DNA of 63,300 nucleotides, the filler included, from an uncultured Methanosarcinales archaeon (GTDB lineage: Archaea > Nanobdellota > Nanobdellia > Woesearchaeales > JAGLXL01), in NCBI GenBank assembly GCA_964472345.1. It is 8 parts of 8 records of this genome, joined end to end, with 100 filler letters (N's around TTAATTAATTAA, not from the genome) between each part and the next. Parts side by side here need not be neighbours in the genome. Positions count along the whole stretch, not along the records: positions 1 to 9,097 come from CAYYLB010000053.1; 7 more parts are not named here. One strand, 5' to 3'. Position numbers and translations under genes: made by a program. The notes under the pieces are model-generated. The model was not told where the DNA came from, made no database searches, and saw only the letters and a program-made list of their open reading frames with translations. Of the stretch, positions 1 to 63,300 are shown piece by piece (within the stretch, counting starts at the first letter, position 1; every line of letters starts with the position of its first letter).

Positions 1-100
1 TCGCTCCGCTCGGCAACCCCCGCGACGCTCCCGATGAGCCTTCCGAAGGAATTTTCGCCCAAGGCTGCTCACTCTTTTTCGGGATGCGGCCCAAGCCTAC

Positions 101-233
101 GGCGTTATTGAAAAGTTCCCGTTCGCTACGCGCGAGCTGCGTGTCCTCCGGACAGGATTCGCGCTAGCGCCTGGCGGGCGTCCCGCTCACGCCAGCGCTC
201 ACTGGCCGCCTTGGCGAACTTTTCAATAACGCC
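101..233. mobile_element. MITE family A, copy 1 (133 bp)
   Basis: 18-bp TIRs GGCGTTATTGAAAAGTTC / GAACTTTTCAATAACGCC; perfect 8-bp flanking direct repeat AAGCCTAC (93-100, 234-241). Confidence 0.9.
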
Positions 234-247
234 AAGCCTACACAACC

Positions 248-255
248 TTTTTAAA
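248..255 (+). promoter_or_regulatory. TATA box of signal peptidase-tfs operon
   Basis: TTTTTAAA starting 31 bp upstream of ATG 279, the spacing expected for a leaderless archaeal transcript. Confidence 0.7.
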
Positions 256-278
256 GCTCGCGCCGTGTTCCGGGCGGG

Positions 279-893
279 ATGAGGAGAGAAGACGCGAGCA
301 CACTGCCGAAAAAGCTGTGGTACTTCCTGTGGTACGATAACAGCGTGTGGAGCTGGGTCGTCAATATCGCTCTCGCATTCCTGCTGATCAAGTTTGCGGT
401 ATTTCCGGGGCTTGGCTTCCTGCTGGGGACGTCGCATCCGATCGTGGCGGTGGTCTCCAACAGCATGGAGCAGGATGGATTGTTTGACGCATGGTGGGCG
501 GAGCAGCAGCAGTGGTATCTCCTGCGGAACATCACGCGGGAGCAGTTTGCGGCATTCCCGTTCCGCAACGGATTCAACAAAGGCGACATCATGGTGCTTC
601 GCGGCAAGGATGCTGAATCAATCGAGGTCGGTGATATCCTTGTCTTTGAAAGCGGACGGCCGAATCCCATCATCCACCGCGTGGTGAGGAAGTGGCGTGC
701 TGAAGGGCAGGAGCTTTTCCAGACGAAGGGGGACCATAATGGCGACAGCATCGCAGGCGGGTTTGTCGATGAGATGGCGATCCGTGAAGAGCGTGTCATC
801 GGTGCCGCGGTGCTGCGCGTTCCGCTGCTTGGGTGGATCAAGATCTGGTTTGTGGAGCTCATTGAACTGGTGAAGGCTGCGGCCGGCGGGTGA
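279..893 (+). CDS. sec11: Signal peptidase I, archaeal Sec11 type
   Basis: N-terminal TM; VVSNSME (catalytic Ser), GDI, IIHRV (catalytic His), TKGDHN. Confidence 0.88.
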   Translation: MRREDASTLPKKLWYFLWYDNSVWSWVVNIALAFLLIKFAVFPGLGFLLGTSHPIVAVVSNSMEQDGLFDAWWAEQQQWYLLRNITREQFAAFPFRNGFNKGDIMVLRGKDAESIEVGDILVFESGRPNPIIHRVVRKWRAEGQELFQTKGDHNGDSIAGGFVDEMAIREERVIGAAVLRVPLLGWIKIWFVELIELVKAAAGG

Positions 894-9097: not shown

Positions 9098-9197
9098 NNN
9101 NNNNNNNNNNNNNNNNNNNNNNNNNNNNNNNNNNNNNNNNNTTAATTAATTAANNNNNNNNNNNNNNNNNNNNNNNNNNNNNNNNNNNNNNNNNNNN
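9098..9197. other. Artificial contig spacer (others at 17947-18046, 26281-26380, 34436-34535, 42446-42545, 50200-50299, 57537-57636; separate 10-N gap at 56942-56951)
   Basis: N run + TTAATTAATTAA (stops in all six frames) + N run, 100 nt each. Confidence 0.98.
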
Positions 9198-17117: not shown

Positions 17118-17210
17118 ATATGAATCTTTGCGTTAATAAGTTAAGTTTTTAGGCAAAGATTCATATGAGAAATGCGTTATTTTTTACACCAATCAACGCA
17201 TTTCTCTATA
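17118..17210. repeat. 93-bp twin-palindrome repeat, copy 1
   Basis: ATATGAATCTTTGC-N21-GCAAAGATTCATAT followed by GAGAAATGCGTT-N16-AACGCATTTCTC; reverse complement of 60418-60510 with one mismatch. Confidence 0.92.
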
Positions 17211-17227
17211 AATGAAACGGGAAGAAA

Positions 17228-17654: not shown

Positions 17655-18158
17655 CTTGCATCATGAGTATCTGGTTTATTAATAAGTCTTTCTTGCGTTT
17701 TCGCGATTTCCCATACTTCTTAAAAACTCCCCGTATCTTCTTGCTAGTATGGATAACTGCGCAGGATATATAGGCCGTGTACAAGAGGCGCTCCGTCCGC
17801 GAATAAACGGCGGAACCCGCAGGCAACCGGCTCAGGTGCCAGCCAATGGAAGCTGAAACCGCCCTCCCCACCCCACCCATCACTGTTTAGTGCGCGGCTG
17901 CGCAAGAACCCTGCGGGTTGAGCCGCAGCGAAACCCGCAGATGAATNNNNNNNNNNNNNNNNNNNNNNNNNNNNNNNNNNNNNNNNNNNNTTAATTAATT
18001 AANNNNNNNNNNNNNNNNNNNNNNNNNNNNNNNNNNNNNNNNNNNNAATTTCATAACCCCAATAAACTTATCGTAGGGAAATAGTTTCGGGATAACACAC
18101 TCCCCCACCAAAAGAGCGCAAAAGTTTAAATAGCCGTGAGCCTTCCGTGAACGGAAAC

Positions 18159-18314
18159 ATGGCAGAACTTATCACCATCCCAAAGGGCAGGTACGAGCAG
18201 CTCATCGGAGAAGTCGAACTGCTGAGGAACACGAAGCTCTACAGGCGCTTGCTCGAGTTTGAGGAAAACATCAGGAAAGGAAAGGTCTTCACCCGCAAGG
18301 ATCTCGGTTTCTAG
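18159..18314 (+). CDS. 51-aa antitoxin-like protein (missing from the ORF track)
   Basis: MAELITIPKGRYEQLIGEVELLRNTKLYRRLLEFEENIRKGKVFTRKDLGF; TATA TTTAAATA at 18125. Confidence 0.65.
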   Translation: MAELITIPKGRYEQLIGEVELLRNTKLYRRLLEFEENIRKGKVFTRKDLGF

Positions 18315-18597
18315 TTCCGGAACATCGCTCGTGTCTTTTCCCGCAGGCGCGCAATCAGCCGCTCTTGTTTCTTTTCGCTGGTCTTGAGATCGTACTTGCT
18401 GTGTTGCATAACCCAAGCGTAGCTTCGCCTATGCTTCGCCATAACGCTTAATTCTTTGGTAAGCCCAGAATTTTGCCTTGGATTCCTGAATCATGCCCAA
18501 CTCGCTTCTGGCATGGATCTGCTCTCCAAATATGCGCTTTACTGCGCTAAACAGATACCAATAATTTTAAAAAGTAGGGTAACAAAGTAATCATAAA

Positions 18598-20040
18598 ATG
18601 ATAGAATATAAAAAGATGTGGGAATCGCACCTTATACCTTTGATTTATGTAGAATGGAATTTGGAAGCTGGTTCAGTAAATCTTAGGAAGTATCTTGGGG
18701 TAGGCCAGAAAGATCAAATAATTGTTGTCAAAAACCTCTGCTGCGAGACATTCTATTCTCTGGAAAGTATGAAAAGAGAAAGTATTTATGGATTTAAAAT
18801 ATTTTCAAGCAATATAAAATCAAGAAAACTAATAGAAATATCTGAAAGACTAGCAAAAGAAGGTTTAGAGTTCTCTACTAAACTATGCAAAACAAACTTA
18901 AAGAACAAAACCAGAAAGGAATTATTTAATTTATTCGAAGAAGTATACAACTGGAGTTTAGAATTATTTGGATTATATTATTCAACACAACCACAATGTT
19001 CAGAGCTTGTAAAACAAAAGTTGATAAAACATTTGGAGATTAAAAAAGTCAATGATTATGTACAAACTTTTTTAGATATCACAGCTCCCAAAACACCAAG
19101 TATAATCAAACAAGCTGAACTTGATTGGTACAAACTTATAGTATCAAAGAAAAAAGAAAAAGTAAAAGAATACTATGATAATTATAAATTTCTTGGAGCA
19201 GAAGAGGGAGTAAAACAAAAACCATTTGGCTATTTTACAAAAAAATTTGATAATGATGCCAAAATACAAACTAGTGAAATATTAAAAAAGATTGATGGAA
19301 TAAATGAATCGTCGGACACTATAACAAGAATCCAATCAAAATTAATCAACGAGTATAATATTCCAAAAGATATTATAGATATGGCTGTTCATGTTCAAGA
19401 ATTCAGTCATATAAGGCTTAAAGTGAGGCTTGCTTGGACAAGCGTAGAATGGGCATGTAAACATCTTTTTGATGGAATAGGAAAAAGATTTAGTTGTAAT
19501 CCTAAAGATTTAGTTAACTATAGAAAGGAAGAGATTATAGCACTTTTTAAAAGTAATAGAAAAGTTCCGGCAGAAATAATCAAAGATAGAAAAAAGTTTT
19601 TTGTTGCTCACATGAGAGATTCTAAACCTACTTTTTTGGTAGGAAAAAATGCAGAAGACTTCATTAGAGTAAATAATATCTATAAGGATATATATGAAAA
19701 AGAATTCAAAGGTGATATTGCAAATAAAGGGCATGTTAAAGGTGAAGCAACGATAATAACTGCCGATGCCGACATATCCAAAGAAATGTTAAAAATGAAG
19801 AAAGGCAATGTTTTGGTTGTTACACAGACAAAACCTATTTTTATGCCTGTACTAAAAAAAGCCATTGCAATAGTTACTGATGAGGGGGGGATTTTGTCTC
19901 ATGCCGCAATTGTTGCTAGGGAATTAAATATACCCTGCATAATTGGCACTCACTATGCTACAAAAGCATTCAAAGATGGCGATTTGTTGGAAGTTGATGC
20001 TGATAAAGGCATTGTTCGCAAGGTGAACGCAAATGGATAA
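18598..20040 (+). CDS. Protein with C-terminal PEP-utilising (swivelling phosphohistidine) domain
   Basis: GDIANKGHVKG, AIVTDEGGILSHAAIVARELNIPCIIG; strongly AT-rich relative to its flanks. Confidence 0.85.
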   Translation: MIEYKKMWESHLIPLIYVEWNLEAGSVNLRKYLGVGQKDQIIVVKNLCCETFYSLESMKRESIYGFKIFSSNIKSRKLIEISERLAKEGLEFSTKLCKTNLKNKTRKELFNLFEEVYNWSLELFGLYYSTQPQCSELVKQKLIKHLEIKKVNDYVQTFLDITAPKTPSIIKQAELDWYKLIVSKKKEKVKEYYDNYKFLGAEEGVKQKPFGYFTKKFDNDAKIQTSEILKKIDGINESSDTITRIQSKLINEYNIPKDIIDMAVHVQEFSHIRLKVRLAWTSVEWACKHLFDGIGKRFSCNPKDLVNYRKEEIIALFKSNRKVPAEIIKDRKKFFVAHMRDSKPTFLVGKNAEDFIRVNNIYKDIYEKEFKGDIANKGHVKGEATIITADADISKEMLKMKKGNVLVVTQTKPIFMPVLKKAIAIVTDEGGILSHAAIVARELNIPCIIGTHYATKAFKDGDLLEVDADKGIVRKVNANG

Positions 20041-20057
20041 GCTCCGCTTCGGCACCG
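20032..20057 (+). repeat. 26-bp direct repeat of the nfo start (partner 21388-21413)
   Basis: AATGGATAAGCTCCGCTTCGGCACCG is identical at both sites. Confidence 0.93.
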
Positions 20058-20154
20058 GTTGGTCCTGGCAGCGTCCCACGCCTCAGCTCTCCTGCTGATC
20101 AGTTCAGTAACATTTATATACTAAAAGGTAACCAAATGGTTACTAAAGAGTAAC

Positions 20155-20772
20155 ATGGTGCTGCTTACCAAAACGCAGGCGAGAATACTGCAGGTCTTCA
20201 CAGGCCGCATCACCGATGTGTTCTCCATACGGGAGGTAGGAAAGCTGCTTGGGATGAACCATTCGCTGGTGCACCGGGCGATAACGCCGCTCATCGAGAA
20301 ACACGGACTCCTCGTGCGGAACAAGCGGGGTTCCCTTTCCATTGACTACCGAAGGAATCATGATATTCTTGCCTATGTCGAATGCCTGAGGAGAAACGAC
20401 TTCTTGCGGAAGCCGCGAAACGCTGACGTTGCCCTTGTTCTTACCGAAGCGGTCAAGAGACTCCAGGAGGAAGCTTTCGTTCTGCTGGTATTCGGATCAG
20501 CGGTTGATACTGCCAAACCAAGGGACATTGACATCCTGCTGATCGTAAACGACGCCGGGAAAACAGAGCCATCAGAACTCTTCCTTCGGAACCTCTCCAG
20601 CAACTACGGGCTGGGTGAAAGACTCCATATTCTTTCCATTTCCTACGAGAGCGTCTACGAGATGCTGAGCAAGAGAGAGCAGCGAAATATCCTGAACGAG
20701 GCGCTTAACAGGCACGTCATCATCCATGGCGCAGAGCTCTTTTACCGCCTGCTTGCAAAGGGAAGAACATGA
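20155..20772 (+). CDS. wHTH plus minimal nucleotidyltransferase (MNT) antitoxin-like protein
   Basis: N-terminal HTH; LVFGSA...RDIDILL. Confidence 0.82.
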   Translation: MVLLTKTQARILQVFTGRITDVFSIREVGKLLGMNHSLVHRAITPLIEKHGLLVRNKRGSLSIDYRRNHDILAYVECLRRNDFLRKPRNADVALVLTEAVKRLQEEAFVLLVFGSAVDTAKPRDIDILLIVNDAGKTEPSELFLRNLSSNYGLGERLHILSISYESVYEMLSKREQRNILNEALNRHVIIHGAELFYRLLAKGRT

Positions 20773-21353
20773 TGCTGGAAGACCAAAAACTCAGGGAGAT
20801 CCGGAAGAGGGTGCAGGGCTACATCGCAGAAGAGACCATCAAAACAAAGAACCCGCCAGCGTACGTTGATTTCTTCCTGAAGAATGCCGAAGATTCGCTC
20901 AACAGCGCCCAGTGCCTTTATGACATCTCTACGAATAAACGCTTTCAAGAGCAGACTGGTTACATCGGGCTTAACGGATTCCTGTGGGTGATTAATGCCA
21001 GCTATTACTCCATGTTTTATAACGTGCGGGCACTGATGGAGCGCTCGGGCATCAGGATACGATCAGACCTCTCGATTCATGCCCGAACATTTGACGTGTT
21101 TGTGCATTTCTTCTATCTCACGGGGAAGCTCCAGAAGGAGTTATTCCGGCAGTACGCTGAAGCAAGTGAGGAGGCGGCAGAGCTGCTCGGCAAGCAAAAG
21201 GCAGACGAGCTGGTCATGGGATATTTTTATGAGAAAGGAAAGAGGGCCGCACTCACCTACCAGACGGGGCAGATTGCACTGCAAAGCAAGGCAAAAACGT
21301 CCCTCGAAAGGGCGCAGCAGTTCAACAGGGAAATGAGGAAACTGCTGAAATGA
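20769..21353 (+). CDS. HEPN-domain protein
   Basis: SYYSMFY, IH, KRAALTY (Rx4Y); ATGA overlap with the MNT gene. Confidence 0.78.
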   Translation: MMLEDQKLREIRKRVQGYIAEETIKTKNPPAYVDFFLKNAEDSLNSAQCLYDISTNKRFQEQTGYIGLNGFLWVINASYYSMFYNVRALMERSGIRIRSDLSIHARTFDVFVHFFYLTGKLQKELFRQYAEASEEAAELLGKQKADELVMGYFYEKGKRAALTYQTGQIALQSKAKTSLERAQQFNREMRKLLK

Positions 21354-24518: not shown

Positions 24519-24552
24519 GCTCTTCCGTGCGGCCGCTGGCGGTCACCGCCCA

Positions 24553-24705
24553 GGGGTTGGTGCGGAACTCCGGTCGCGCTGGGCGAAGACCCTCGTTCCG
24601 CCGCTCAGCTTCGGACTTTGCGGAGTCCTCAGGTCGCTTCGCTTCCCCTGCGTCGCCCGCGGCCGAGGTGATGGTCGCGCCAGCGCTGAATTCCGCACCA
24701 ACCCC
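24553..24705. mobile_element. MITE family B, copy 1
   Basis: TIRs GGGGTTGGTGCGGAA / TTCCGCACCAACCCC; flanking CACCGCCC at 24544-24551 and 24706-24713. Confidence 0.8.
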
Positions 24706-24727
24706 CACCGCCCCACAAAGGTATAAA

Positions 24728-26280
24728 ATGGCCACACTTCTTGAGCGGCTCCCTGTTAAGCCTGTGCACTACTCGCTGGTGTTTGAGCCGGACCTGAAAA
24801 GGTCAACGTTTGCAGGCGAAGCGGTGATAACTCTCCATGCGGCGCGGGAGACGGACGTGCTGGTGCTCAACGCCGCAGAGCTTGCGATCCAGGAATGCAC
24901 GATCCGCTGGAAGGGGAGGACGCTCAAGGCAGCGTGGACGCTGGATGAGAAGAACGAGGAGCTCACCATACGCCTGCACGAAAAAATCAGCGGTGAAGCA
25001 ACCCTGCAGCTGCGCTTCACCGGCACCCTGAACGACCACCTGCTCGGCTTCTACCGCAGCGAATACAAGGACGGGCGCGGGACGCACCTGCTGGCAACGA
25101 CGCAGTTCGAGGCGGCGGACGCCCGCAGAGCGTTTCCGTGCTGGGACGAGCCTGCGGCAAAGGCCACGTTCGACGTCACGCTCGTCGTTGACAACGGGCT
25201 TGAGGCGCTCTCGAACATGCCGCTTGCCGAACGGAAGACGGCGGGAAACAAGACGCTCTTCCGCTTTGCGCGGACGCCCGTGATGTCCACCTATCTGCTC
25301 TATCTTGGGGTCGGAGAGTTTGAGTTCCTTGAAGGGAATGAATGCGCGGTCGCGATCCGCATCGTCACGACACCGGGAAAGAAAGAGCAGGGAGCGTTCG
25401 CACTTGAGCTTACGAAAAAGCTCCTGCGGTTCTTCAATGACTATTTTGGCATACCCTACCCGCTGCCCAAGCTTGACATGATCGCAATACCTGACTTTGC
25501 CTCGGGGGCCATGGAGAACTGGGGAGCGGTCACTTTCCGGGAGACGCGGCTGCTGTTCGATCCGAAGACATCATCGCACAGCACGGAAAAGGACATTGCC
25601 GAAGTGATTGCGCATGAGCTTGCCCATCAGTGGTTCGGCGACCTCGTGACGATGCGCTGGTGGAACGATTTGTGGCTGAACGAGAGCTTCGCGACGTTCA
25701 TGGCAACGAAGGCAGTCGATCACCATTATCCCGAATGGGAGCTCTGGGAGCAGTTCCTGAAGCTCGCGATGGTCAGCGCGATGAGCCTCGACGGCCTGCG
25801 GAATTCGCACCCCATAAACGTGGACGTGCAGCGGCCTGCAGAGGTGAGGGAGATCTTCGACAGCATCAGCTATGACAAGGGCGGATCCATCCTGCGCATG
25901 CTGGAGGATTACGTCGGCGAGCAGGAATTCAGGAAAGGGCTTCAGCGGTACCTCGCGGAGCACCGCTATGGGAATGCGGCGACCCGTGACCTGTGGCGCG
26001 CGATAGGCACTGTTGCAGGCAAGCCGGTGGACGAGATGATGGGCAGCTGGGTTGAGCAGGCGGGATATCCTCTCGTGCAGGTTGAGAGGGCAGGCGGGAA
26101 GCTGAAGCTGAGCCAGCGGCAGTTCCTGCTTGATGGAGGAGAGACGGAAAGCATCTGGAGCCTCCCTCTCACGGTGCAGACGGGTGATAAGAAAATCACT
26201 GCGCTGATGGCAGAGCGCGAGATGCTGCTGGCGGCCTCTTCATCGCCCGTCAAGCTCAACGCCGGCCAGAAAGGGTTCTA
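24728..26280 (+). CDS. M1 aminopeptidase (puromycin-sensitive/tricorn-interacting type), 3'-truncated
   Basis: TQFE, GAMENWG, HELAH-x18-E, YDKG. Confidence 0.94.
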
Positions 26281-26380
26281 NNNNNNNNNNNNNNNNNNNN
26301 NNNNNNNNNNNNNNNNNNNNNNNNTTAATTAATTAANNNNNNNNNNNNNNNNNNNNNNNNNNNNNNNNNNNNNNNNNNNN

Positions 26381-27804: not shown

Positions 27805-30800
27805 TCACCTTCTCCGCAGCGCCATGAGCACACCCAGTACCGCTCCGAGCGCAAGCACCACGACGGCCGCAGTCCGAACCGCTCCGCTGCCGAATGGCGC
27901 CGCAGCCGCAGCACCCGTCAGTGCATTGCCGCTGATGATCGCGTTTCCGAAGCTCGCTTGCTCGTTCTGGGCTGGCGCAGTTTGCGTGCTTGCTGCCGCT
28001 TGTCCGGCTGGCTGCTGCACCGCAGTGCTCGCCGCTGCCCCCTTGCAGAATGGCCGGTCAGTTGTCGAGCTCGGGAAGCTGCACGTCGCAACGCTTCCTG
28101 CACCACAGCTCAATGCCTGCACAAGCTCAGCGCACGTCGGGCCGGAAACTGCCGGGGGCGCTGTCACGACAACCGTCCTTCGCCCCCCCCCCCCCCCCCC
28201 CCCCGCCGCGCCCCTATTTTTTTTTTCACCGCCCCGCGCCCCCCCCCCGATATACCCCCACCACCGCCGCCCCCGGCAACTCAAACCACCGGTTGCCCCC
28301 CACCCCCGCCGCCACCTGTATTGCCATTATTGTTGTTGTCATCGCCAGGCGTCTCCTCGACGATATACTCCGACCACTGCGTCACCGTGAAGTTCACCAC
28401 ACCGTTGGCAAAGCTGAAGTTCTGGCACCGCGGCGCCTCGCACACCTGGTTCGGCCCGCCATTGCCGTCGTTGAAAACCACGCGGGGGTTGCCGAACGGC
28501 ACATTGGGGAATGTCAGCGTCGCGCTCGTGTTCAGTCCGGGAACCGCAGCGGAGTCCAGCGATGCTGATGTCGGCGTGACGCTCAGCAGCGAGCCATTGA
28601 CGGCAACATCACCCGTCAGCGTGGCAGTTGGAAACAGCACCTGCGCGCCGCTCCCGTCGCCGAAGGCGACATTGCTCAGCGTCAGCGTCCCGTTCTCCAG
28701 CGTGATGCTCATGCCGGGAGTGTTGACGACCAGGTTGTTCATGCTCCCCACGCTGTTCTGGACGAGCAGCTGCGGGCTGCCGGCAAGGATGCAGTTGTTC
28801 ACCTGGATGCCATTCGCGCCGACAATGCTGAGGTTGGCAATGGTGCTTTCGTCGCAGTTCAGCGTCGTGTTCGTCTCGTTGAGCATCACGGTGCCGTTCG
28901 TCTGGTTTGTCAGGTTGATGACCGGCGGGGCCGCAGTGACGATGAAGGTGGTGCTTTCGGTTCTGTTATCCGAGATAGAATTATCAGTAATTGCAATAAC
29001 GACAACCGTCCAGACCCCAACCTCAGTCGTTGAGTCTGTTGCGAAGTCGGTGCTAAAGATGGTCCCGATGCTCCCATCACCCGTCACCATCATCTGCTGT
29101 GTCACCGCGCCGCTCGGAGAAGTGAAGTTGGCGATCACGCTATCTATATTAAGCTCATTGGTAACATTCGCACTGATGGTGGTTATATCCCCTTGCTCAA
29201 TCGTTGATGGGTTAGCACTTAAATTTTGCACATTTATTGGGGATACAAGGGTGATCGTGGCCGTTTCACTGGCATTGATATTGGCAGAAGTATCCGTTGC
29301 AATAAATCGAACGACATAAGTACCAAACTCAGGAAAGGTTGATTCTGAAAAGCTTACGAGATAATATCCAAAAGGTGGAGTAGGCACTACCACCTGCTGC
29401 GCAGTAATCGCTCCGCTTGGCGAAGTTAAGGTTGCGATGACACTACTCAGTCCGACGTTATCAGTCACCACCGCAGCCACCATCGCACCATCTGCTGAAC
29501 CTACGAACAACATTTGCGGCGAACTAAAAATCATCACACTTGGCACAGTCGTATCATCCACCGTAATCGTCACCGTATCGGTCGCGGTGTTTCCCGCAGC
29601 ATCCGCAACCGTCAGCGTCACCAAATAAACACCCGGCGTCGCAAACGTGTAAGTTGGTGCAACACCAGTCAACGTTTGCGCCGTCCCGTCCGTGAACGTC
29701 CACGTGTAGCTTGTGATGCCGACACTATCCGTCGAGCCTGAGCCATCAAATGTGACCAGCGTGTCCTCATTCACCGTCTGGTCTGGGCCAGCGTTTGCTG
29801 TTGGCACAGTCGTATCCGGCGCCGGAACAACCTCAAACGTCGTGCTTTCGGTATTGTTAATCGCGGCAAGCCTACCAGTCTCTAGAGAAGTACTTGAAGC
29901 AACAACAACCGTCCAGACTCCAATCTCAGTCGTTGAGTCTGTCGCGAAATCGGTGCTAAACCCGACACTAGATACTCCTATCATAATCTGCTGCGTCACC
30001 GCGCCGCTCGGAGAAGTGAAGTTGGCGAGCACGTTATCTAACAAATCACTAGGCTCAGTAGAAACATTCGCACTGATGGTGGTTATATCCCCTTGCTCAA
30101 TCGTTGATGGGTTAGCAGTTACATTTTGCACAGCTATTGGGGATACAAAGGTGATCGTGTTCGTTTCACTGGCATTGACATTGGCAGAGGTATCCGTTGC
30201 AATAAATCGAGCGACATATGTACCCAACTCAGGAAAGTTTGAGCTATTAGTTGAAAAGCCTGTGCTATACCTTCCCGAAGCAAGCACTGCCGTCTGCTGC
30301 GCCGTAACCGATCCGCTCGGCGAAGTTAAGGTTACTATGACACTGCTCAGTCCAATGTTATCGGTCACCGTTGCATATACACTCATAGTAGATGGCCGTC
30401 CCAATCCCAATTCGACATCGACAAACACTTGCGGCGGGTATAACACTCCTACCGACGGTGGTGTAATATCATTCACCGTAATCGTCACCGTATCGGTCGC
30501 GGTATTCCCCGCAGCATCCGCTACCGTCAGCGTCACTAAATAAACACCCGGCGTAGCAAACGTGTAGCTCGGTGAAGCTCCCGTGAGAGTCTGCAGCGTA
30601 ACGTCCGTGAATGTCCATGTAAAGCTTGTGATGCCAACATTATCGCTCGAGGCAGATCCATCAAACGCCACAAGCGTGTCCTCGCTCACCGTCTGATCAG
30701 GGCCGGCGTTTGCTGTCGGAGCAGTCGTGTCCGGAAGCGTCAGCACAAAATTTGAAAAATCAGGGTGGGTGAGAAGTACGCCGTCGTCTCGTCTGAAGAA

Positions 30801-34188: not shown

Positions 34189-34535
34189 CGTAACCTCCAG
34201 TATGGCGTCCTTCTTTTCCTTGTCCGGAACGGTAGCAGCTTCCAGAAGCGCCGATTACCCAAACCGGTCTGGTGCACAGCCCGCCCGCCCAACCAGGAAC
34301 GACGTCGCGCTCTCCGTGGCGATAGGCTCCTGCCGGTGTGCCGTTGATTTTCTCCATCAGCGCTGCAACAAGAGCGCTCAGCGCCCCGCCTACACGTACG
34401 CCACAGTCCCTTCTCGATGCAGCTTCCAAAATGTCNNNNNNNNNNNNNNNNNNNNNNNNNNNNNNNNNNNNNNNNNNNNTTAATTAATTAANNNNNNNNN
34501 NNNNNNNNNNNNNNNNNNNNNNNNNNNNNNNNNNN

Positions 34536-37478: not shown

Positions 37479-37573
37479 AAATGTCTCTTCCCTGACGGCA
37501 TCCCCGACGGCACCCACTTTCCCCCAGCTTTCATACTTTCTCTCGAAACATTTATAACACTTCGCGGGGAAGC

Positions 37574-37747
37574 GGGGTTGGTGCGGAATGTGCACTGCCT
37601 CCTCTTTTGCGAGCGACGCCGTCCGCTGCTTGCAGGGCAGCTGGGACTGATTTCCTTTAATGCAAACTGCGGGATAGCAGCGAAGCGAGTTGCGGAAATC
37701 AGCGGAGTGAGCTGGCAGTGACGCGAAGCGAATTACGCACCAACCCT
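37574..37747. mobile_element. MITE family B, copy 2 (degenerate TSD)
   Basis: TIRs GGGGTTGGTGCGGAAT / ATTACGCACCAACCCT; flanks GGGGAAGC and AGTGAAGT (5/8 match). Confidence 0.68.
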
Positions 37748-40196: not shown

Positions 40197-40240
40197 GCCC
40201 ATGTTCCAGCTCCCGCTGTTTAATAAGGTTACGGGTTTCG

Positions 40241-40397
40241 GGCGTTATTGAAAAGTTCGCCAAGGCGGCAAGTGAGCGCCTCGGACTCGGTACGAGGCTC
40301 AGGAGGACGCTGCACGTTCTCCGCGCCTCGGACTCGGTACGAGGCTCAGGAAAAGCGCACTTTTCCGCGTAGCGAACGGGAACTTTTCAATAACGCC
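40241..40397. mobile_element. MITE family A, copy 2 (157 bp)
   Basis: Same 18-bp TIRs; TSD GGGTTTCG (40233-40240, 40398-40405); internal 29-bp direct repeat at 40276-40304 and 40323-40351. Confidence 0.92.
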
Positions 40398-40510
40398 GGG
40401 TTTCGCAGTACCTCCGCACGCAGTTTTCCACGCCAAGAACGCCGCCGGTGCCTGCTCGCTCGCACTCATGGCGCTGGTGGCGGCGCTCTTGGCAGTTGCG
40501 GAGTGCTTTT

Positions 40511-42032: not shown

Positions 42033-42075
42033 GGCTGCGTGGGCAGGGCGCCCGTATAAAAAGGTGTCTCTGGTC

Positions 42076-42336
42076 GGCTCTGCAGAAACCCGCTGCACTG
42101 CCTGCTCCTGCGAATGAGGCTGGCGCCGACGTCTCGGCACGAAGTGCGAGTAGCTCCCCACTGCTTGCAAAGCTCTCCGAGTTTGCAAGCTCAGAAGCGC
42201 ACTTCTGCTGCTTGCACTGCCCGTGGAAACCGCTTTCCTTCAGCGGGACGGAGCAAGCCACAGCAAAGGAAACGGCAGGAAAGCGGCCGAGTGAGTTGGC
42301 AGTGCCGAGCGCAGGCGAGAGGGTTTCTGCGGAGCC
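42076..42336. mobile_element. MITE family C (261 bp)
   Basis: TIRs GGCTCTGCAGAAACCC / GGGTTTCTGCGGAGCC (15/16); perfect TSD CTCTGGTC (42068-42075, 42337-42344). Confidence 0.87.
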
Positions 42337-42545
42337 CTCTGGTCCGGCCGGAATGTCTGTTGCTTCGCTCCTCCTATGCTGCACTCGCAGATGTCGTGTC
42401 CGGAAATTATTTCGCCAACCATTTATAAGCTTGGATAAACCCCAANNNNNNNNNNNNNNNNNNNNNNNNNNNNNNNNNNNNNNNNNNNNTTAATTAATTA
42501 ANNNNNNNNNNNNNNNNNNNNNNNNNNNNNNNNNNNNNNNNNNNN

Positions 42546-47646: not shown

Positions 47647-48306
47647 TCACCTAAACATATCCGGAATTTCCTTCAAATCAAGCGTCCGGGTTTTCTTCGA
47701 GACGAAAAGCATGTTGTTGGCGAGCGGCCTGATCCGGCCAAGGTAGTATTCTTTTTCAATCGCAAATCCGTACTTGCGGAGGATCATCCGGAAGTTCCTG
47801 ATGGTGTAGAAGCGGACATGCTTGTGCTCGGGATGGAAATGGCGGTGCAGGTCGACAAGCGTGATTGCGAGCATCTTCCAGAGGTTATGCATCGGTGTCG
47901 ACGCAATCAGGTAGCCTCCCGGTTTCAGGATGCGGTTGAACTCGGAGAAAAGCATAATGGTGTCGTAGACATGCTCAATCACGTCGCCTGCCCAGATAAT
48001 GTCGAAGAAGCCGTCGCTGTAGGGCAGCCGCCTGCCGAGCTCACCGGCGCGGAAATCGATGCCGCGGTGCTTCCTCTTCGCTTCGCGGATGTTTGCTGCG
48101 ACTGCGTCAACGCCATACGCCTGGAAGCCAAGCTCGCGGATCTTTGCGCAGACGTCGCCCTTGTAGCAGCCTGCGTCGAGGACTTTGCCAAATCTCTTTT
48201 CTGCCGCCTGTTTCGCCAGGAACTCGATGAAGCGATCCTTCCTTTTTTTCCTTATGGGGTAGTTTGGGGTGTACTCCCGCAGGCCCGTCCATTGCTCATA
48301 ATCCAT
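47647..48306 (-). CDS. Class I SAM-dependent methyltransferase
   Basis: VLDAGCYKG, FDII, IEH, ILKPGG, STP. Confidence 0.88.
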   Translation of the reverse strand: MDYEQWTGLREYTPNYPIRKKRKDRFIEFLAKQAAEKRFGKVLDAGCYKGDVCAKIRELGFQAYGVDAVAANIREAKRKHRGIDFRAGELGRRLPYSDGFFDIIWAGDVIEHVYDTIMLFSEFNRILKPGGYLIASTPMHNLWKMLAITLVDLHRHFHPEHKHVRFYTIRNFRMILRKYGFAIEKEYYLGRIRPLANNMLFVSKKTRTLDLKEIPDMFR

Positions 48307-48363
48307 TTTTTTTGTGGCACTGCTGGGATATTTAAACTATTCGAAGGGTTTTCGTGGCACTGT

Positions 48364-48615
48364 CTAATCCGTGGGACTTTCCGCCATTTTCTGCCCTCCT
48401 GTCGCTTGCGGGACTTTTAGGCCGTTCAGCAACATCGTTTCCCATCGGTTGCCTGATACGCTGATTCTGCACCGCTCAGCTGACGTAAGCCTGTCCTTAA
48501 CGCCCTTCCGCACGAGGTTGTGGAACACCTTGAAGCCGTCCGCATACTGCTGGATTTCATTCACGCCACGCCTTACCTTATGGAACTCCTTTTGCTGTCC
48601 GTTGAGGTTTTCCAT
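48364..48615 (-). CDS. Small hypothetical protein divergent from the ATPase gene
   Basis: 83-aa ORF below a TATA-like TTTATATA on the minus strand. Confidence 0.45.
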   Translation of the reverse strand: MENLNGQQKEFHKVRRGVNEIQQYADGFKVFHNLVRKGVKDRLTSAERCRISVSGNRWETMLLNGLKVPQATGGQKMAESPTD

Positions 48616-48694
48616 TGTTTTACACCTTATAATCATACCATTGTAATGATTTTTTATCATAATTAATGATAACTTATATATAAATATTGTGGTA

Positions 48695-48720
48695 TTATAA
48701 TGATATAATCTCATTATAAT
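48695..48720. promoter_or_regulatory. Palindromic operator candidate between divergent promoters
   Basis: 10-bp inverted repeat ATTATAATGA..TCATTATAAT between two TATA-like boxes. Confidence 0.45.
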
Positions 48721-48754
48721 AAAGTATTTATATAAGAACTAGTTTACTGATAAT

Positions 48755-50056
48755 ATGGAGAGTAAAGACTTTGATCCAATATTTCCAAGATATGGCCTGA
48801 GTTCTGACCCTTACTTCATTCAACCATTATTAATCGAAGGCGGGAAAGTAAATATGGAAATATTTGTAGGGAGAGAAGCGGAAAGAGCCGAACTTTCAAA
48901 AATAGTTGCGATGGGTGGGGGAAGAAGGTGTGTTATACTTGGTGATGCTGGAGTTGGTAAGACCACTCTTGCAAATTTTGTAAGGAAGATGGCAAGAGAA
49001 AATACCTATTTCTCACCAATAAATGAAATCCAATTTCAAGAAGATTGGACAATTAATGAGGTGGTAATTAATACGTTACAAGCAATATATTCTGAAATAA
49101 AATCAAAAGGTGTAACGCTTTCCAATAATACACTCATAACAAAATTAGAAGACCTGTTTGAACTATATCGGATTGTAAAAGATTCGGATATAGAGCCTCG
49201 TTCTTTGATGACAATTAACACCACGATGCTTCTGGATTTATTTAAGAAAGTTGTAAACGAACTTGTTGTAAGTGGATATAGGGCAGTAATCTTGCATTAC
49301 AATAATTTTGACAATATCGATGATGATGGGTATTTAGTGAGAATACTCAACATTCTTCGAGACTACCTTATGGCGCCAAATGTTATTTTTATCCTGATAG
49401 GGGACCAAAAACTTGTAGATGCGATAAATGTAAAACCAAGACTTCGACAAATATTTACAACATCCCCTATTAGAGTTGGAAACCTCTCTTTAGAGAATGT
49501 AAAACAGATCATCCATCAGAGGATTGAAGCCCTTAAATTAACCCCGACGACCCCGCATATCGCACCCCATTCTGATGATGCTATTGAAGTTTTATATGAG
49601 TTGTTTAATGGAAATATCAGGGACATACTCAACAGTTTATCAGAATCTGTAAATGTTAGAAAAGCAATAGAATTGACTCCTCTTAGGACTAAAGAAGCAT
49701 TAATAGAAATTGCAAAACGGAGATTTGTAAGTGGGTTGTCCGAAAGAGAGAGAGAGGTACTTAATCTGTTCTTAGAACAAGGCGAACTAACAAACACGGA
49801 AATAGCATTAAAAATCAAACAGAAAGTACAAAATATTTCTCCGATCCTAAAAACCCTGAGAGAGATGGGAGCTATTAAATTAGATAGAAAGGAAGGAACA
49901 AAAAAATTTTATAAGATTACAACGGAGGCATCGTGGCTTAAACTTAAGATTACAGACAAAGAAAGGCTGAAGGAAAAAGAAAAAGAGGCACAGGAATTAA
50001 GTCAAATCCAAAAAAGGGTAATTGAATTTTTTGAGGTTGAAAAGGGGAAGTTCTAA
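48755..50056 (+). CDS. AAA+/STAND-like P-loop ATPase with C-terminal wHTH
   Basis: FVGRE, GDAGVGKTT, GNIRD, C-terminal LSEREREVL..TNTEIA HTH; AT-rich. Confidence 0.8.
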   Translation: MESKDFDPIFPRYGLSSDPYFIQPLLIEGGKVNMEIFVGREAERAELSKIVAMGGGRRCVILGDAGVGKTTLANFVRKMARENTYFSPINEIQFQEDWTINEVVINTLQAIYSEIKSKGVTLSNNTLITKLEDLFELYRIVKDSDIEPRSLMTINTTMLLDLFKKVVNELVVSGYRAVILHYNNFDNIDDDGYLVRILNILRDYLMAPNVIFILIGDQKLVDAINVKPRLRQIFTTSPIRVGNLSLENVKQIIHQRIEALKLTPTTPHIAPHSDDAIEVLYELFNGNIRDILNSLSESVNVRKAIELTPLRTKEALIEIAKRRFVSGLSEREREVLNLFLEQGELTNTEIALKIKQKVQNISPILKTLREMGAIKLDRKEGTKKFYKITTEASWLKLKITDKERLKEKEKEAQELSQIQKRVIEFFEVEKGKF

Positions 50057-50138
50057 GAGCCTATCCCATTTGGCAGAGGAGCCCGTTGGCGCTCCGTCGG
50101 GGTCTGCGGTACTGGAAACGCCTATTGGGATGGGCTCT
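50056..50138. mobile_element. Small TA-flanked inverted-repeat element (family D)
   Basis: TA-AGAGCCTATCCCA...TGGGATGGGCTCT-TA; the same 15-mer AAGAGCCTATCCCAT recurs at 60743-60757. Confidence 0.55.
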
Positions 50139-50299
50139 TATTTTATGTCGTGTCCTAATATTATTTCGTTTCAGCTTCATTTTTCATCCTCCGCCAAAAN
50201 NNNNNNNNNNNNNNNNNNNNNNNNNNNNNNNNNNNNNNNNNNNTTAATTAATTAANNNNNNNNNNNNNNNNNNNNNNNNNNNNNNNNNNNNNNNNNNNN

Positions 50300-51327
50300 T
50301 GCTGCGTCACGCAGTGGATGCCGCCGTAGCCGTACACGAGCGCTTCTGACGGGATGCCGACGACGCGCCGGCCGGGGAAGAGGCTGCGGAGGATCGAAAG
50401 CGCCTTCTCGTCGTTTGTGTCGTTGAACGTCGGCACAAGCACCACTTCGTTGCCGATGTAGAAGTTCGCGTAGCTTGCCGGCAGCCTGCGCTCGGGGCAG
50501 TCGATGCGCCGCGGCATGGGAATCTCAACAACACGCAGCCGCCTGCCGTCCTGGTCGCGCGCCTCCTGCAAGAGCGCGAGGTTTCGCTTCAGCGGCAGGT
50601 GGTTTGCGTCCTTCGGATCATCTTCCACCATCGCAACCACAGTGCCGGGAGCAACAAAGCGGGCGATATCATCGACATGGCCGTCCGTGTCATCGCCTTC
50701 GATCCCTTCCTTCAGCCAGATGAAGTGCGTGAAGCCGAGGTACGCCTTGAGCTGCTGCCCGATCTGCTCCTTCGTCAGGCTGGGGTTCCGGTTCCTGTTC
50801 AGCAGGCATTGCCCGGTGGTGATGCACGTGCCGAGGCCGTTGGTGTCGATGGAGCCGCCCTCGAGCACCATTCCCGGCTCAAACACCTGAAGCTTCATCG
50901 CCTGCGCAATCCGCATGCCTGTCTCGTTGTCCGGGAGCAGGTCATCATACTTACTGCCCCAGGCATTGAAGACCCATTTTACCGCTGCGGCCTTCTTCCG
51001 CGATCGGTCCACCACAACAATCGGCCCATAATCCCTGAGCCAGACATCCGTGGAAGGGATGCGGTGAAAGATGACACCGCGCGTTTCACGCAACTGGGAA
51101 GCGACGCGCCGCTCTGTTGCAGCATCATCAACCAGCAGGTGGACGCGCTCGCCACGGCAAAGCTCTCCGATGATGCGGGCGTAGAGTTCCTCAACTGCCC
51201 CAAGGATATGCGGCGGGAACGTCTCGGGATCCTTCGGCCAGCTCAGCAAGGTGCCTTCATGCTTCTCCCACTCTGCGGGCATGCGGTAGCCGAGGGCTGC
51301 GGGGGCATCACGCCGAATCTTTGCCAT
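50300..51327 (-). CDS. aguA: Agmatine deiminase, 3'-truncated
   Basis: RMPAEWE, WLRDYGP, LEGGSI, DTDGHVD, SYANFY, GGIHCVTQ. Confidence 0.95.
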
Positions 51328-55495: not shown

Positions 55496-55521
55496 GCTGC
55501 TGAATACGGGAACACAGCACC

Positions 55522-55703
55522 GGCGTTATTGAAAAGTTCGCCAATGCCCTAAAATCACCGCAGTGATTTGGGTCCCAGAAGCGCACTTCTGCTGACGGCC
55601 AGTGAGCGCCGGCGTAAGCGGAACGCCTGCCAGGCTTTAGCTCGATGCCAGTCCGAAGGACAAGCGGGTCGAGCGTAGCGAACGGGAACTTTTCAATAAC
55701 GCC
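55522..55703. mobile_element. MITE family A, copy 3 (182 bp, with nested insert)
   Basis: Same TIRs; TSD ACAGCACC (55514-55521, 55704-55711); resembles reverse complement of copy 1 plus an insert of about 50 bp. Confidence 0.92.
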
Positions 55704-55747
55704 ACAGCACCGGAATATTTAAATAGTGCCGCTATCTCCATCAAAAA

Positions 55748-56749: not shown

Positions 56750-56984
56750 GGGTTTCAGGTATGTATAGCCTATATAAATTATAATGCTCACTTTTATTAT
56801 TGCCCAGCGCCTATAAACACAGCATGGAAGGCAAAGATATCGGGGCGCTTGCCGACCCGCTGGTTCGTTCCCGGGGCGCATTATACGAAACAACGGAAGA
56901 GCAGCGCGCGGACGCACGCACCGACAGAACGAACAGACTCGNNNNNNNNNNATATTTATAGGAGATAAAACCACAAGTGCTCCC

Positions 56985-57536: not shown

Positions 57537-57636
57537 NNNNNNNNNNNNNNNNNNNNNNNNNNNNNNNNNNNNNNNNNNNNTTAATTAATTAANNNNNNNN
57601 NNNNNNNNNNNNNNNNNNNNNNNNNNNNNNNNNNNN

Positions 57637-60321: not shown

Positions 60322-60341
60322 GGCGCAGATCAGAGTTGAAC

Positions 60342-60526
60342 ATACTAGCAAATCTCCTTCATGATTGAACATTTGGGAGATTTGCCAGAATAGTAAATCG
60401 CGACGAAAAAGTTCAGGTATAGAGAAATGCGTTGATTGGTGTAAAAAATAACGCATTTCTAATATGAATCTTTGCCTAAAAACTTAACTTATTAACGCAA
60501 AGATTCATATCATTGCGATTTACTAT
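60342..60526. repeat. Chained and nested palindrome array containing twin-palindrome copy 2 (60418-60510)
   Basis: GCAAATCTCC/GGAGATTTGC pair; ATAGTAAATCGC (60390-60401) and GCGATTTACTAT (60515-60526) enclose the 93-bp unit. Confidence 0.88.
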
Positions 60527-62793: not shown

Positions 62794-63300
62794 GGGAAAG
62801 CGAGACGATCACCATCGTCTTAAATGCGTCGGCCTTCGCAAGCTCCTGCGCCTTTGGCGTGAGCGTGCCGTTGTGGAGGAGCATCACCGGCAGTTTCCCC
62901 AACTGGCCTTCGACGAGCGCCGCGCTGAGATCCTTCTCTGTCACGCGCTTCTTGCTGCAGGCCTTGCAGAGGTAGGGCAGCGGGCCTACGGCGGAGGGGA
63001 CTTCAATGGTGTAGAGCATCTCTGAATCCCTGCGGATCATCTGTTCGCTGCGGACGGTGATGCCCTTTTGCCCGAAAAACTGGCCGATGCCCGCTGAAAA
63101 GCTGCCTGGCCTGGCCGGCTTTTGCCTCGGTTTTGCGCGCTGCTTCGGCTGCTCGAGCTTTTGCTGCTCCTGAAGCGGCTGCCTAGGCTGCTGGGCTTTA
63201 TTGAAAAGCTCCCGTTCGCCATGCGGAAAAGTGCGCTTTTCCTGAGCTCGTACAAGTCCGAGCCGCGGAGAACGTGCGGCGTCCTCCTGGGCTCGTACAA
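62783..63300 (-). CDS. Hypothetical protein upstream of fen, 5' part outside the window; contains an in-frame MITE
   Basis: No stop codon in this frame from 63300 to 62786; Q/P/K linker, then a globular-looking domain overlapping the fen start. Confidence 0.7.
   Translation of the reverse strand, partial: VRAQEDAARSPRLGLVRAQEKRTFPHGERELFNKAQQPRQPLQEQQKLEQPKQRAKPRQKPARPGSFSAGIGQFFGQKGITVRSEQMIRRDSEMLYTIEVPSAVGPLPYLCKACSKKRVTEKDLSAALVEGQLGKLPVMLLHNGTLTPKAQELAKADAFKTMVIVSLSHGN
63194..63300. mobile_element. MITE family A, copy 4 (partial, diverged)
   Basis: GGCTTTATTGAAAAGCTCCCGTTCGCCATGCGGAAAAGTGCGCTTTTCCTGAGC aligns with the reverse complement of copy 2. Confidence 0.85.

Follow-up and report, generated by a model that had tools for sequence, protein, structure and literature searches.

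Ty3, a long terminal repeat (LTR) retrotransposon of yeast with a retroviral-type integrase, is targeted by TFIIIB (the TATA-binding protein, TBP, together with Brf1), a dependence which has been shown biochemically. In archaea, the TFB-recognition element (BRE) is bound by transcription factor B (TFB), and TBP bends the TATA box. The subject of this study is a set of MITEs (transposable elements of the miniature inverted-repeat type) which sit beside TATA boxes in a 63.3-kb stretch of archaeal DNA (hereafter the window; assembly GCA_964472345.1) and elsewhere in the genome from which it was taken. Their insertion would resemble that of Ty3 in being base-pair precise at promoters, in sparing genes and in taking host initiation factors as its landmark (those of Ty3 being related to archaeal TBP/TFB), with the difference that Ty3 integrates at the Pol III start site and the elements described here upstream of the TATA box. 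The closest bacterial systems are TnGBS, ISLre2 and ISKra4 (p-MULT 3/4), which insert 15-17 bp upstream of the sigma-A -35 box. With Ty3 and TFIIIB as the parallel, the authors suggested that these elements make contact with the initiation complex (PMC3942029). The present elements are alike in being DDE elements that lie upstream of a core promoter element, at a short and constant spacing which leaves it intact, and, like the p-MULT members with symmetric inverted repeats (IRs), in occurring in both orientations. Unlike those bacterial, Mutator-like elements, they have an archaeal TATA/BRE landmark and an IS6-like candidate transposase (PF00872 being absent from the genome), they are mostly MITEs, and they are also found downstream of the box, in the mirror position.

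Two further systems are relevant to the comparison. Elements of the IS6/IS26 family produce an 8-bp target duplication and have terminal inverted repeats (TIRs) of 15-20 bp with GG tips and cTGTt and caaa motifs; the accessible sections of the family review treat hybrid promoters and the targeting of another IS26 copy, with no mention there of promoter docking, count only two IS6-family MITEs listed in ISfinder, and place Zn-finger IS6 transposases only in the Clostridial clades h and i (PMC7986276). Relative to those sections, the elements studied here share the 8-bp target site duplication (TSD) and the DDE_Tnp_IS240 domain and may share the short G-tipped TIRs with TGT/AAA motifs, while they differ in docking at promoters, in having an extra Zn ribbon outside Clostridial clades h and i, and in scoring below the NF033587 cut-off. 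For the archaeal ISH6 (p-MULT 2), target choice is said to favour promoter or intergenic regions (PMC3942029); its TSD is described there as an AT-rich 8-bp word (AANATNTT), whereas the TSDs of the present elements have no sequence preference and lie 6 bp from an AT-rich box. Literature searches, which included the available part of an article on Pyrococcus insertion sequences (PMC6640164) and did not cover one survey of archaeal insertion sequence (IS) diversity, returned no published case of promoter docking in archaea.

Distance between the elements and the TATA box

The window is composed of eight contigs (C53, C54, C56, C57, C58, C60, C61 and C67) of the source genome G000 (1.26 Mb, 120 contigs, 57% GC), joined by N spacers around TTAATTAATTAA, so that gene neighbourhood across the joints is not real. 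Elements A1, A2 and A3 (Table 1) have perfect 18-nt TIRs (GGCGTTATTGAAAAGTTC, with 7 occurrences in the window against 0.02 expected) and perfect 8-bp TSDs, and an octamer resembling a TATA box follows after 6 bp, with the ATG 30-31 nt beyond the start of this octamer. A sequence-only reading of the window had claimed that these three and element C share one layout (8-bp TSD, 5-6 bp, TATA box, ATG at about 30 nt), which was confirmed for all four, as were the spacings it gave for B1 (6 bp before the box) and B2 (7 bp beyond the opposite side of the box), two copies of a third family with the TIR GGGGTTGGTGCG. B1 is flanked by the TSD CACCGCCC at 24544-24551 and 24706-24713, next to which come cacaaa and GGTATAAA, and its box is doubtful as a promoter because no gene start is found about 30 nt past it. 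Element A4, which the same reading had regarded as an exception, is cut by the contig and window end with only one end visible, and is therefore no exception.

The TATA boxes were placed with a BRE+TATA matrix derived from 332 open reading frame (ORF) upstream regions without MITE ends, so that it is independent of the elements. In this matrix the TATA box is TTTAWAWA, starting 29-31 nt before the ATG in 211/332 promoters, the BRE is M-R-A-A-A at -7 to -3, and a score of 8 is reached by 0.11% of random 15-mers in the 57% GC genome; the promoter beside A1 scores 17.9 at offset 14, with the ATG 31 nt after the TATA start. Placement by counting A/T in 8-mers was dropped in favour of the matrix, as it shifted the box by 1-5 nt because the BRE is A-rich. 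Gene calls are ORF heuristics made for this analysis, and additional MITE families were recognised by self-BLAST of the genome.

Genome-wide, TIR A has 48 matches (up to 3 mismatches), yielding 21 paired copies of 132-310 bp, with TSDs that are perfect over 8 bp in 13 copies and have one mismatch in 4. According to the independent matrix, the promoter starts exactly 14 nt from the element end in 17/21; one of the others is at 13 nt, one at 15, and in the 2 degenerate copies there is no such promoter. The behaviour is common to six families whose ends are IS6-like (A, C, D, F, f8 with GGCTCCGGTGAAAAAGTC and f9 with GGCTCTGGTGAAAGTC). These have the characteristics of MITEs, namely lengths below about 400 bp, no ORF, TIRs, TSDs and many copies (the A family, and 56 paired copies over the six families, some doubtful D-family pairs included). 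Of these 56 copies, 40 have the start of their best TATA box (searched within 45 nt) 13-16 nt off, and 23 have it at exactly 14 nt (8-bp TSD plus 6 bp). At random genome positions the 13-16 nt range is reached in 1.07% (P=4.5e-66 for 40/56), and chance is thereby ruled out. When only the copies with a TATA box within 45 nt are considered, 40/46 are at 13-16 nt vs 7.8% expected (P=2.9e-38). Three more copies (C10:14955, C8:24390 and C38:10125) have their second-best box at 14-15 nt, which gives 43 conforming sites. The fixed distance proposed from the window alone thus holds genome-wide as a spike at 14 nt, and the broad distance distribution that had been named as the refuting outcome was looked for and not seen. 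Two MITE families with other ends (E, GTATTTGTTTAGCACC, and family 4, TAGAGCCTATCCC) have 0/14 copies at 13-16 nt. The orientation of the elements relative to the promoter is random (8 vs 8, with 5/21 A copies not classifiable). A 9-bp TSD is allowed in a few copies (C8:19766, C10:9575, C70:3617 and the ISs in loci L001 and L033); for the A family as a whole it was rejected, since the tips of the TIRs, together with the G at BRE position -6, account for the extra matching base. On these sequence comparisons, insertion directed to a set spacing from the TATA box is strongly supported, and we regard it as established as far as sequence can show.

The genome is dense, with 83% of G000 covered by ORFs of at least 120 codons, and near-random insertion followed by selection, whereby only the gene- and promoter-sparing copies survive in a compact genome, would draw support from this density, from the 14/36 assessable sites at which no free non-ORF DNA remains beyond the TSD, and from the excess of upstream over downstream copies. 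Selection predicts, however, a one-sided broad distribution or threshold and not a spike, and at 16/36 sites at least 30 nt of further non-ORF DNA was available beyond the TSD. Because an insertion leaves two TSD copies, the BRE/TATA would stay whole at offsets 8-13 as well, and these offsets are almost empty; nor does selection account for the two MITE families without the spacing, or for the two copies described below which separate a promoter from its gene. Selection alone is largely refuted as an explanation by the distance statistics, and we regard it as very improbable. Access without aiming, with promoters being open through the lack of chromatin proteins or through melting at initiation, is compatible with enrichment near promoters and with nothing more specific; it would spread the insertions over tens of bp and not with 1-bp precision on the unmelted side of the TATA box, which makes it even less probable.

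The TATA box could also be part of the element, as a portable promoter, or the repeats could be spread by recombination, and BLAST does carry a few copies into the TATA region, for example those ending in GTTTATAAA. Against this, unique 8-bp TSDs stand between the TIR and the box, as in the 13 perfect and 4 single-mismatch A copies, and both the 6-bp spacer and the box vary from copy to copy. In addition, a 2,017-nt contig of one groundwater run joins 40231 to 40397 with the flanks kept, skipping 165 nt that correspond to MITE A2 and one TSD copy, with 9 letters that fit both sides of the joint. This contig represents a co-occurring variant, about 7% different nearby, and is a candidate empty site for A2 (one contig, one run; further letters may lie at the joint). 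Altogether, an element that carries its own TATA box, or a spread of the repeats by recombination, is hardly conceivable.

Column by column from -8 to +9, the base composition of the 43 conforming sites agrees with that of the 332 MITE-free promoters, including the BRE (A at -4 in 83% vs 80%, at -3 in 88% vs 87%), and the TATA scores are equal (11.69 vs 11.77 for generic promoters). The TSD positions (-14 to -8) carry at most 0.2 bit, in agreement with the earlier statement that the TSD sequences are unrelated to each other. A start codon (ORF of at least 60 codons) is found 24-36 nt after the TATA start at 30/43 sites, a tRNA gene 31-33 nt past it at 2/43, and a later ORF start (44-55 nt) at about 7/43, several of them after a Shine-Dalgarno-like motif. 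The targets are ordinary core promoters. The boxes used are degenerate (TTTTTAAA, ATTAAATA, CTTATAAA, TTCTTAAA, TTTTTGAA), and the spacing is constant within 1 bp. IR-like targeting, as known for IS911 and IS30, would require a likeness between the target and the element's own end; it was rejected, as the match is only 7/14 and families with different TIRs share the target.

The same spacing is found in other genomes, although the relatives compared are not independent samples. The metagenome-assembled genomes with the same elements are Woesearchaeota or Nanoarchaeota; 5/5 complete TIR-A copies conform in G002 and 4/4 in G060, one of them at +15. A scan of genome contigs gave 13 paired archaeal copies (two of which repeat those of the G002/G060 set), 12 of them conforming and mostly adjoining boxes 29-33 nt before the start codon.

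Candidate transposase

Six transposase families were searched in G000, and PF13610 (IS6/IS240) alone matched, once; PF12762, PF01609, PF00872, PF00665 and PF03050 gave no match in this genome. The PF13610 gene lies in a 1-kb IS (locus L001, 1091-2104, on contig C31) with the TIR GATACTGTCAAATAAT. Its flanks are CAGATACG(A), aaaaag and TTAATAAA, then an ATG about 29 nt on, and the resident IS itself therefore follows the docking rule of the MITEs. Autonomous IS6-like copies do the same in G000, G002, G162 and G172. Among 31 IS6-like genes of other genomes, ends were delimited for five, of which L034 and L035 obey, L051 has the box and no TSD, and L050 and L060 disobey; the remaining loci are mostly AT-rich.

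In the IS6-like protein, a DDE domain is accompanied by a Zn ribbon of the IS1/IS1595 type and by a helix-turn-helix region. PF13610 scores are 36.8, 35.3 and 42.2 bits for the G000, G002 and G060 copies (cut-off 27), and the catalytic D, D, E and the Zn-ribbon Cys pairs are invariant or nearly so in 19 relatives. The NCBIfam IS6 equivalog NF033587 (125 bits) is not reached, with 47 bits for ORF2 of G000 and 80.2 bits for G060, and the Zn ribbon matches NF050000 (35.4 bits). Judged by these scores, the G000 transposase is a putative distant IS6-like branch with an added IS1/IS1595-type Zn ribbon. In G000 and G002, which belong to two genera, the gene is split at the same place into two overlapping ORFs, Zn ribbon/helix-turn-helix and then DDE (L001 1161-2097 and L033 1130-2094, respectively), while it is a single ORF in G060 and G162. 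Programmed frameshifting is known from IS1, and by analogy the split may reflect a programmed frameshift rather than decay.

All three genomes with TIR-A MITEs (G000, G002 and G060) carry an IS6-like gene, compared with 31/201 genomes of the order, a tally which takes in the unpublished G139 and on which no other claim depends. Of the three TIR-A genomes, only one contains PF01609. The TIR ends of families F, C and f9 (GGCTCTGTAGAAAAG, GGCTCTGCAGAAAC and GGCTCTGGTGAAAG) and of D2 (GGAGGTTGTTGCAAAA) fit the IS6 pattern of a GG tip, TGT and caaa, and the family A end (GGCGTTATTGAAAAG) has the GG tip and an A run, with no TGT. Ends of the IS5/IS903 type resemble these. Several candidate parents were examined. 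Scanning genome contigs for TIR A returned only MITEs in 24 archaeal loci, plus chance matches in bacterial records; the solo TIR A ends could not be paired with any distant second end, and a repeat common to the contig ends of C114, C34 and C117, considered as a TIR A parent, led nowhere. A parent for TIR F was sought in 22 metagenome loci and rejected, the elements of about 1 kb carrying an IS5-type DDE_Tnp_1, with the F motif sitting within a longer IR. We infer that the IS6-like transposase moves the MITEs.

Possible landmark of the insertions

The reading that we favour is that the MITEs are non-autonomous derivatives of IS6-like DDE transposons, with a transposase that would be positioned by the TBP(-TFB)-bound TATA box; its probability is, in our estimate, about 0.5. 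Measured from the edge of the 8-bp TATA box, the promoter-proximal cut is 6 bp away, about 10 bp (about one helical turn) from the dyad of the box, with the second cut another 8 bp (sometimes 9) outwards. The TSD therefore spans -14 to -7, and insertion leaves the BRE/TATA unit whole. According to the proposed mechanism, the transpososome would be positioned by the bent, TBP(-TFB)-bound TATA box and not by a DNA word of its own. The downstream mirror site would also be open to attack, because TBP has almost two-fold symmetry when it is bound to a near-palindromic TATA box. Downstream hits split the promoter from the gene and should mostly be lost, and upstream hits, which keep the promoter, would make for a safe harbour for the elements in a gene-dense genome.

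Two copies are indeed found at the mirror position, downstream of near-palindromic TATA boxes and between the box and the gene. The f9 copy C5:13281-13412 lies 6 bp from TTTATAAA, with a box-ATG distance of 30 nt when the element is left out, and the upstream mirror site of this same box is taken by an F copy. The D copy B2 lies 7 bp after gaaaca-TTTATAAC, for which the TATA-ATG distance before insertion would have been about 30-31 nt. The idea that insertion spares the promoter consequently holds for the upstream copies, which leave the BRE/TATA whole, and fails for these two, which split the promoter from its gene.

A protein landmark (TBP, with or without TFB) is favoured by the generic promoter profile of the targets, by its being shared among families with different ends, by the TBP-like degeneracy of the boxes and by the two-sided hits, and we infer that host TBP/TFB plausibly serves this function. 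Hits on both sides of the box make the TATA box or TBP a more likely landmark than the BRE or TFB. The main alternative, which fits the data almost equally well, is direct readout, in which the transposase itself recognises the TATA (with or without BRE) sequence or shape, for instance via the Zn ribbon or the helix-turn-helix, and cuts at a fixed distance. This would give identical geometry and statistics; the extra Zn ribbon of the clade could provide the means, the mirror-site copy at a TATA box without a BRE on that side shows that TATA alone can suffice, and TATA boxes are rare AT islands in this genome, as the low frequency of matrix scores of at least 8 among random 15-mers indicates. 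Nevertheless, the accepted boxes are as degenerate as TBP sites with a spacing kept within 1 bp, and no position is conserved beyond the generic promoter profile. Furthermore, in AT-rich relatives (33-49% GC), where TATA-like octamers are abundant, the elements mostly adjoin the box that precedes a start codon by about 30 nt, although selection could also cause that. We consider direct readout a serious possibility that nonetheless falls short of even odds.

Several observations weigh against positioning by TBP and TFB. All of the sequence observations are equally expected if the transposase reads TATA (+BRE) DNA or its shape, and in one mirror-site case the side facing the element has no BRE (matrix score 2.4), which speaks against TFB-BRE being indispensable to the landmark. 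The downstream cases number just 2, one of them with an imperfect TSD (5/8), and 13/56 paired elements do not conform (16 by the automated best-hit count). The sequence-only reading had also proposed to find the cognate transposase by its TIRs; an IS6-like candidate exists in the genome, but neither G000 nor the 24 archaeal TIR-A loci nor the F-TIR metagenome scan yielded an autonomous copy that carries the TIRs of the MITEs, and the link between MITEs and transposase is therefore indirect.

In a more general form, archaeal IS6-like transposases would measure their distance from the TATA box as bent by TBP, whether TFB takes part or not, and would cut at one helical turn from the dyad of the box, upstream or downstream, as a prokaryotic DNA-transposon counterpart of TFIIIB-guided Ty3, a generalisation that we put forward tentatively, at slightly under even odds. 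If this is true, transposons that aim at initiation sites with base-pair precision would occur in archaea as well as in bacteria (TnGBS/ISLre2) and yeast (Ty3), in archaea by means of a different, IS6-like transposase family, and it would be explained how a gene-dense DPANN genome of 1.26 Mb tolerates at least 70 MITE copies (56 + 14). The system would be simple to test, requiring a transposase of about 290 aa, a 130-bp element, TBP and TFB. Symmetric hits around palindromic TATA boxes bear on how the orientation of TBP is set, and element ends could serve as practical markers of functional promoters in uncultured archaea. The insertions move upstream regulatory DNA 130-300 bp away and may thus rewire regulation.

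Other insertions and repeats

The positions of the elements, of the adjoining promoters and of the contig joints are collected in Table 1.

Table 1. Coordinates of the elements and associated features, in window positions unless a contig of G000 is named.
Feature	Position	Strand	Details
MITE A1, 133 bp	101-233		perfect 18-nt TIR GGCGTTATTGAAAAGTTC
Left 8-bp TSD of A1, AAGCCTAC	93-100		identical copy, the right TSD, at 234-241
Core promoter beside A1	242-255	+	BRE-like ACAACC 242-247; TATA box TTTTTAAA 248-255; ATG 279
MITE A2, 157 bp	40241-40397		TSD GGGTTTCG at 40233-40240 and 40398-40405
Core promoter beside A2	40219-40232	-	GTAACC, then TTATTAAA (40226-40219); ATG 40196
MITE A3, 182 bp	55522-55703		with TSDs 55514-55711; TSD ACAGCACC on both sides
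Core promoter beside A3	55712-55725	+	GGAATA, then TTTAAATA at 55718; ATG 55748
MITE A4, left end and part of body only	63194-63300		ends at contig/window end 63300
MITE C, 261 bp	42076-42336		TIR GGCTCTGCAGAAACCC; with TSDs 42068-42344; TSD CTCTGGTC on both sides
Core promoter beside C	42055-42067	-	5-bp ACACC, then TTTTTATA (42062-42055); ATG 42032
D-type MITE B1	24552-24705		TIR GGGGTTGGTGCG; whole layout 24544-24729; then cacaaa, GGTATAAAAT
D-type MITE B2	37574-37746		7 bp downstream of TATA box; TSD imperfect, GGGGAAGC / AGTGAAGT, 5/8
Promoter gaaaca-TTTATAAC	37545-37558	+	aimed at gene with ATG 37763; B2 now in between
Family E copies in G000	C2:14573, C4:19454, C7:20406, C8:18027, C13:17927, C22:791, C42:7535, C80:533		
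Contig joints	9098-9197, 17947-18046, 26281-26380, 34436-34535, 42446-42545, 50200-50299, 57537-57636		N runs around TTAATTAATTAA
Additional N run	56942-56951		

Some internal modules are common to MITE families with different TIRs, such as cagaagcgcacttctgctg, which is found in A3 (55570-55600) and in C (42190-42215), and long GC-rich hairpins are likewise common to them; because of these modules, BLAST fuses the families into two large clusters. A variant of MITE C without 169 internal nt (window 42108-42278) is present in runs X1-X3, so that copies of one element differ by whole modules within the population. From these sequences, the MITEs look modular or chimeric. An F-type MITE with the perfect TSD GATCGCAC (C5:16798-16930) is inserted in a lipoprotein-like gene, among its first codons and 41 nt past its TATA box, with a new in-frame ATG after the element.

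Family E has A/T-rich 8-mers as TSDs, for example AAAAAAGA, GTTTTTGA and GAAAAAAG, and near promoters it directly abuts the TATA box. This is a different target habit, reminiscent of ISH6 and closer to it than that of the other families.

AT-rich repeats of about 100 bp with two hairpins (e.g. ATAGTAAATCGC...GCGATTTACTAT) occur at 17118-17216 and 60339-60514 of the window, and the genome has about 20 copies of them. They show neither a TIR/TSD layout nor an association with TATA boxes, and by their sequence look like palindrome-associated (IS200/IS605-type) or REP-like elements. Direct repeats with a period of about 900 bp and 83-93% identity at 28986-30736 are probably a tandemly duplicated gene segment. 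Finally, two islands of low GC content, at 18001-21000 (0.40) and 48001-51000 (0.44) vs 0.57 for the genome, are possibly foreign DNA.

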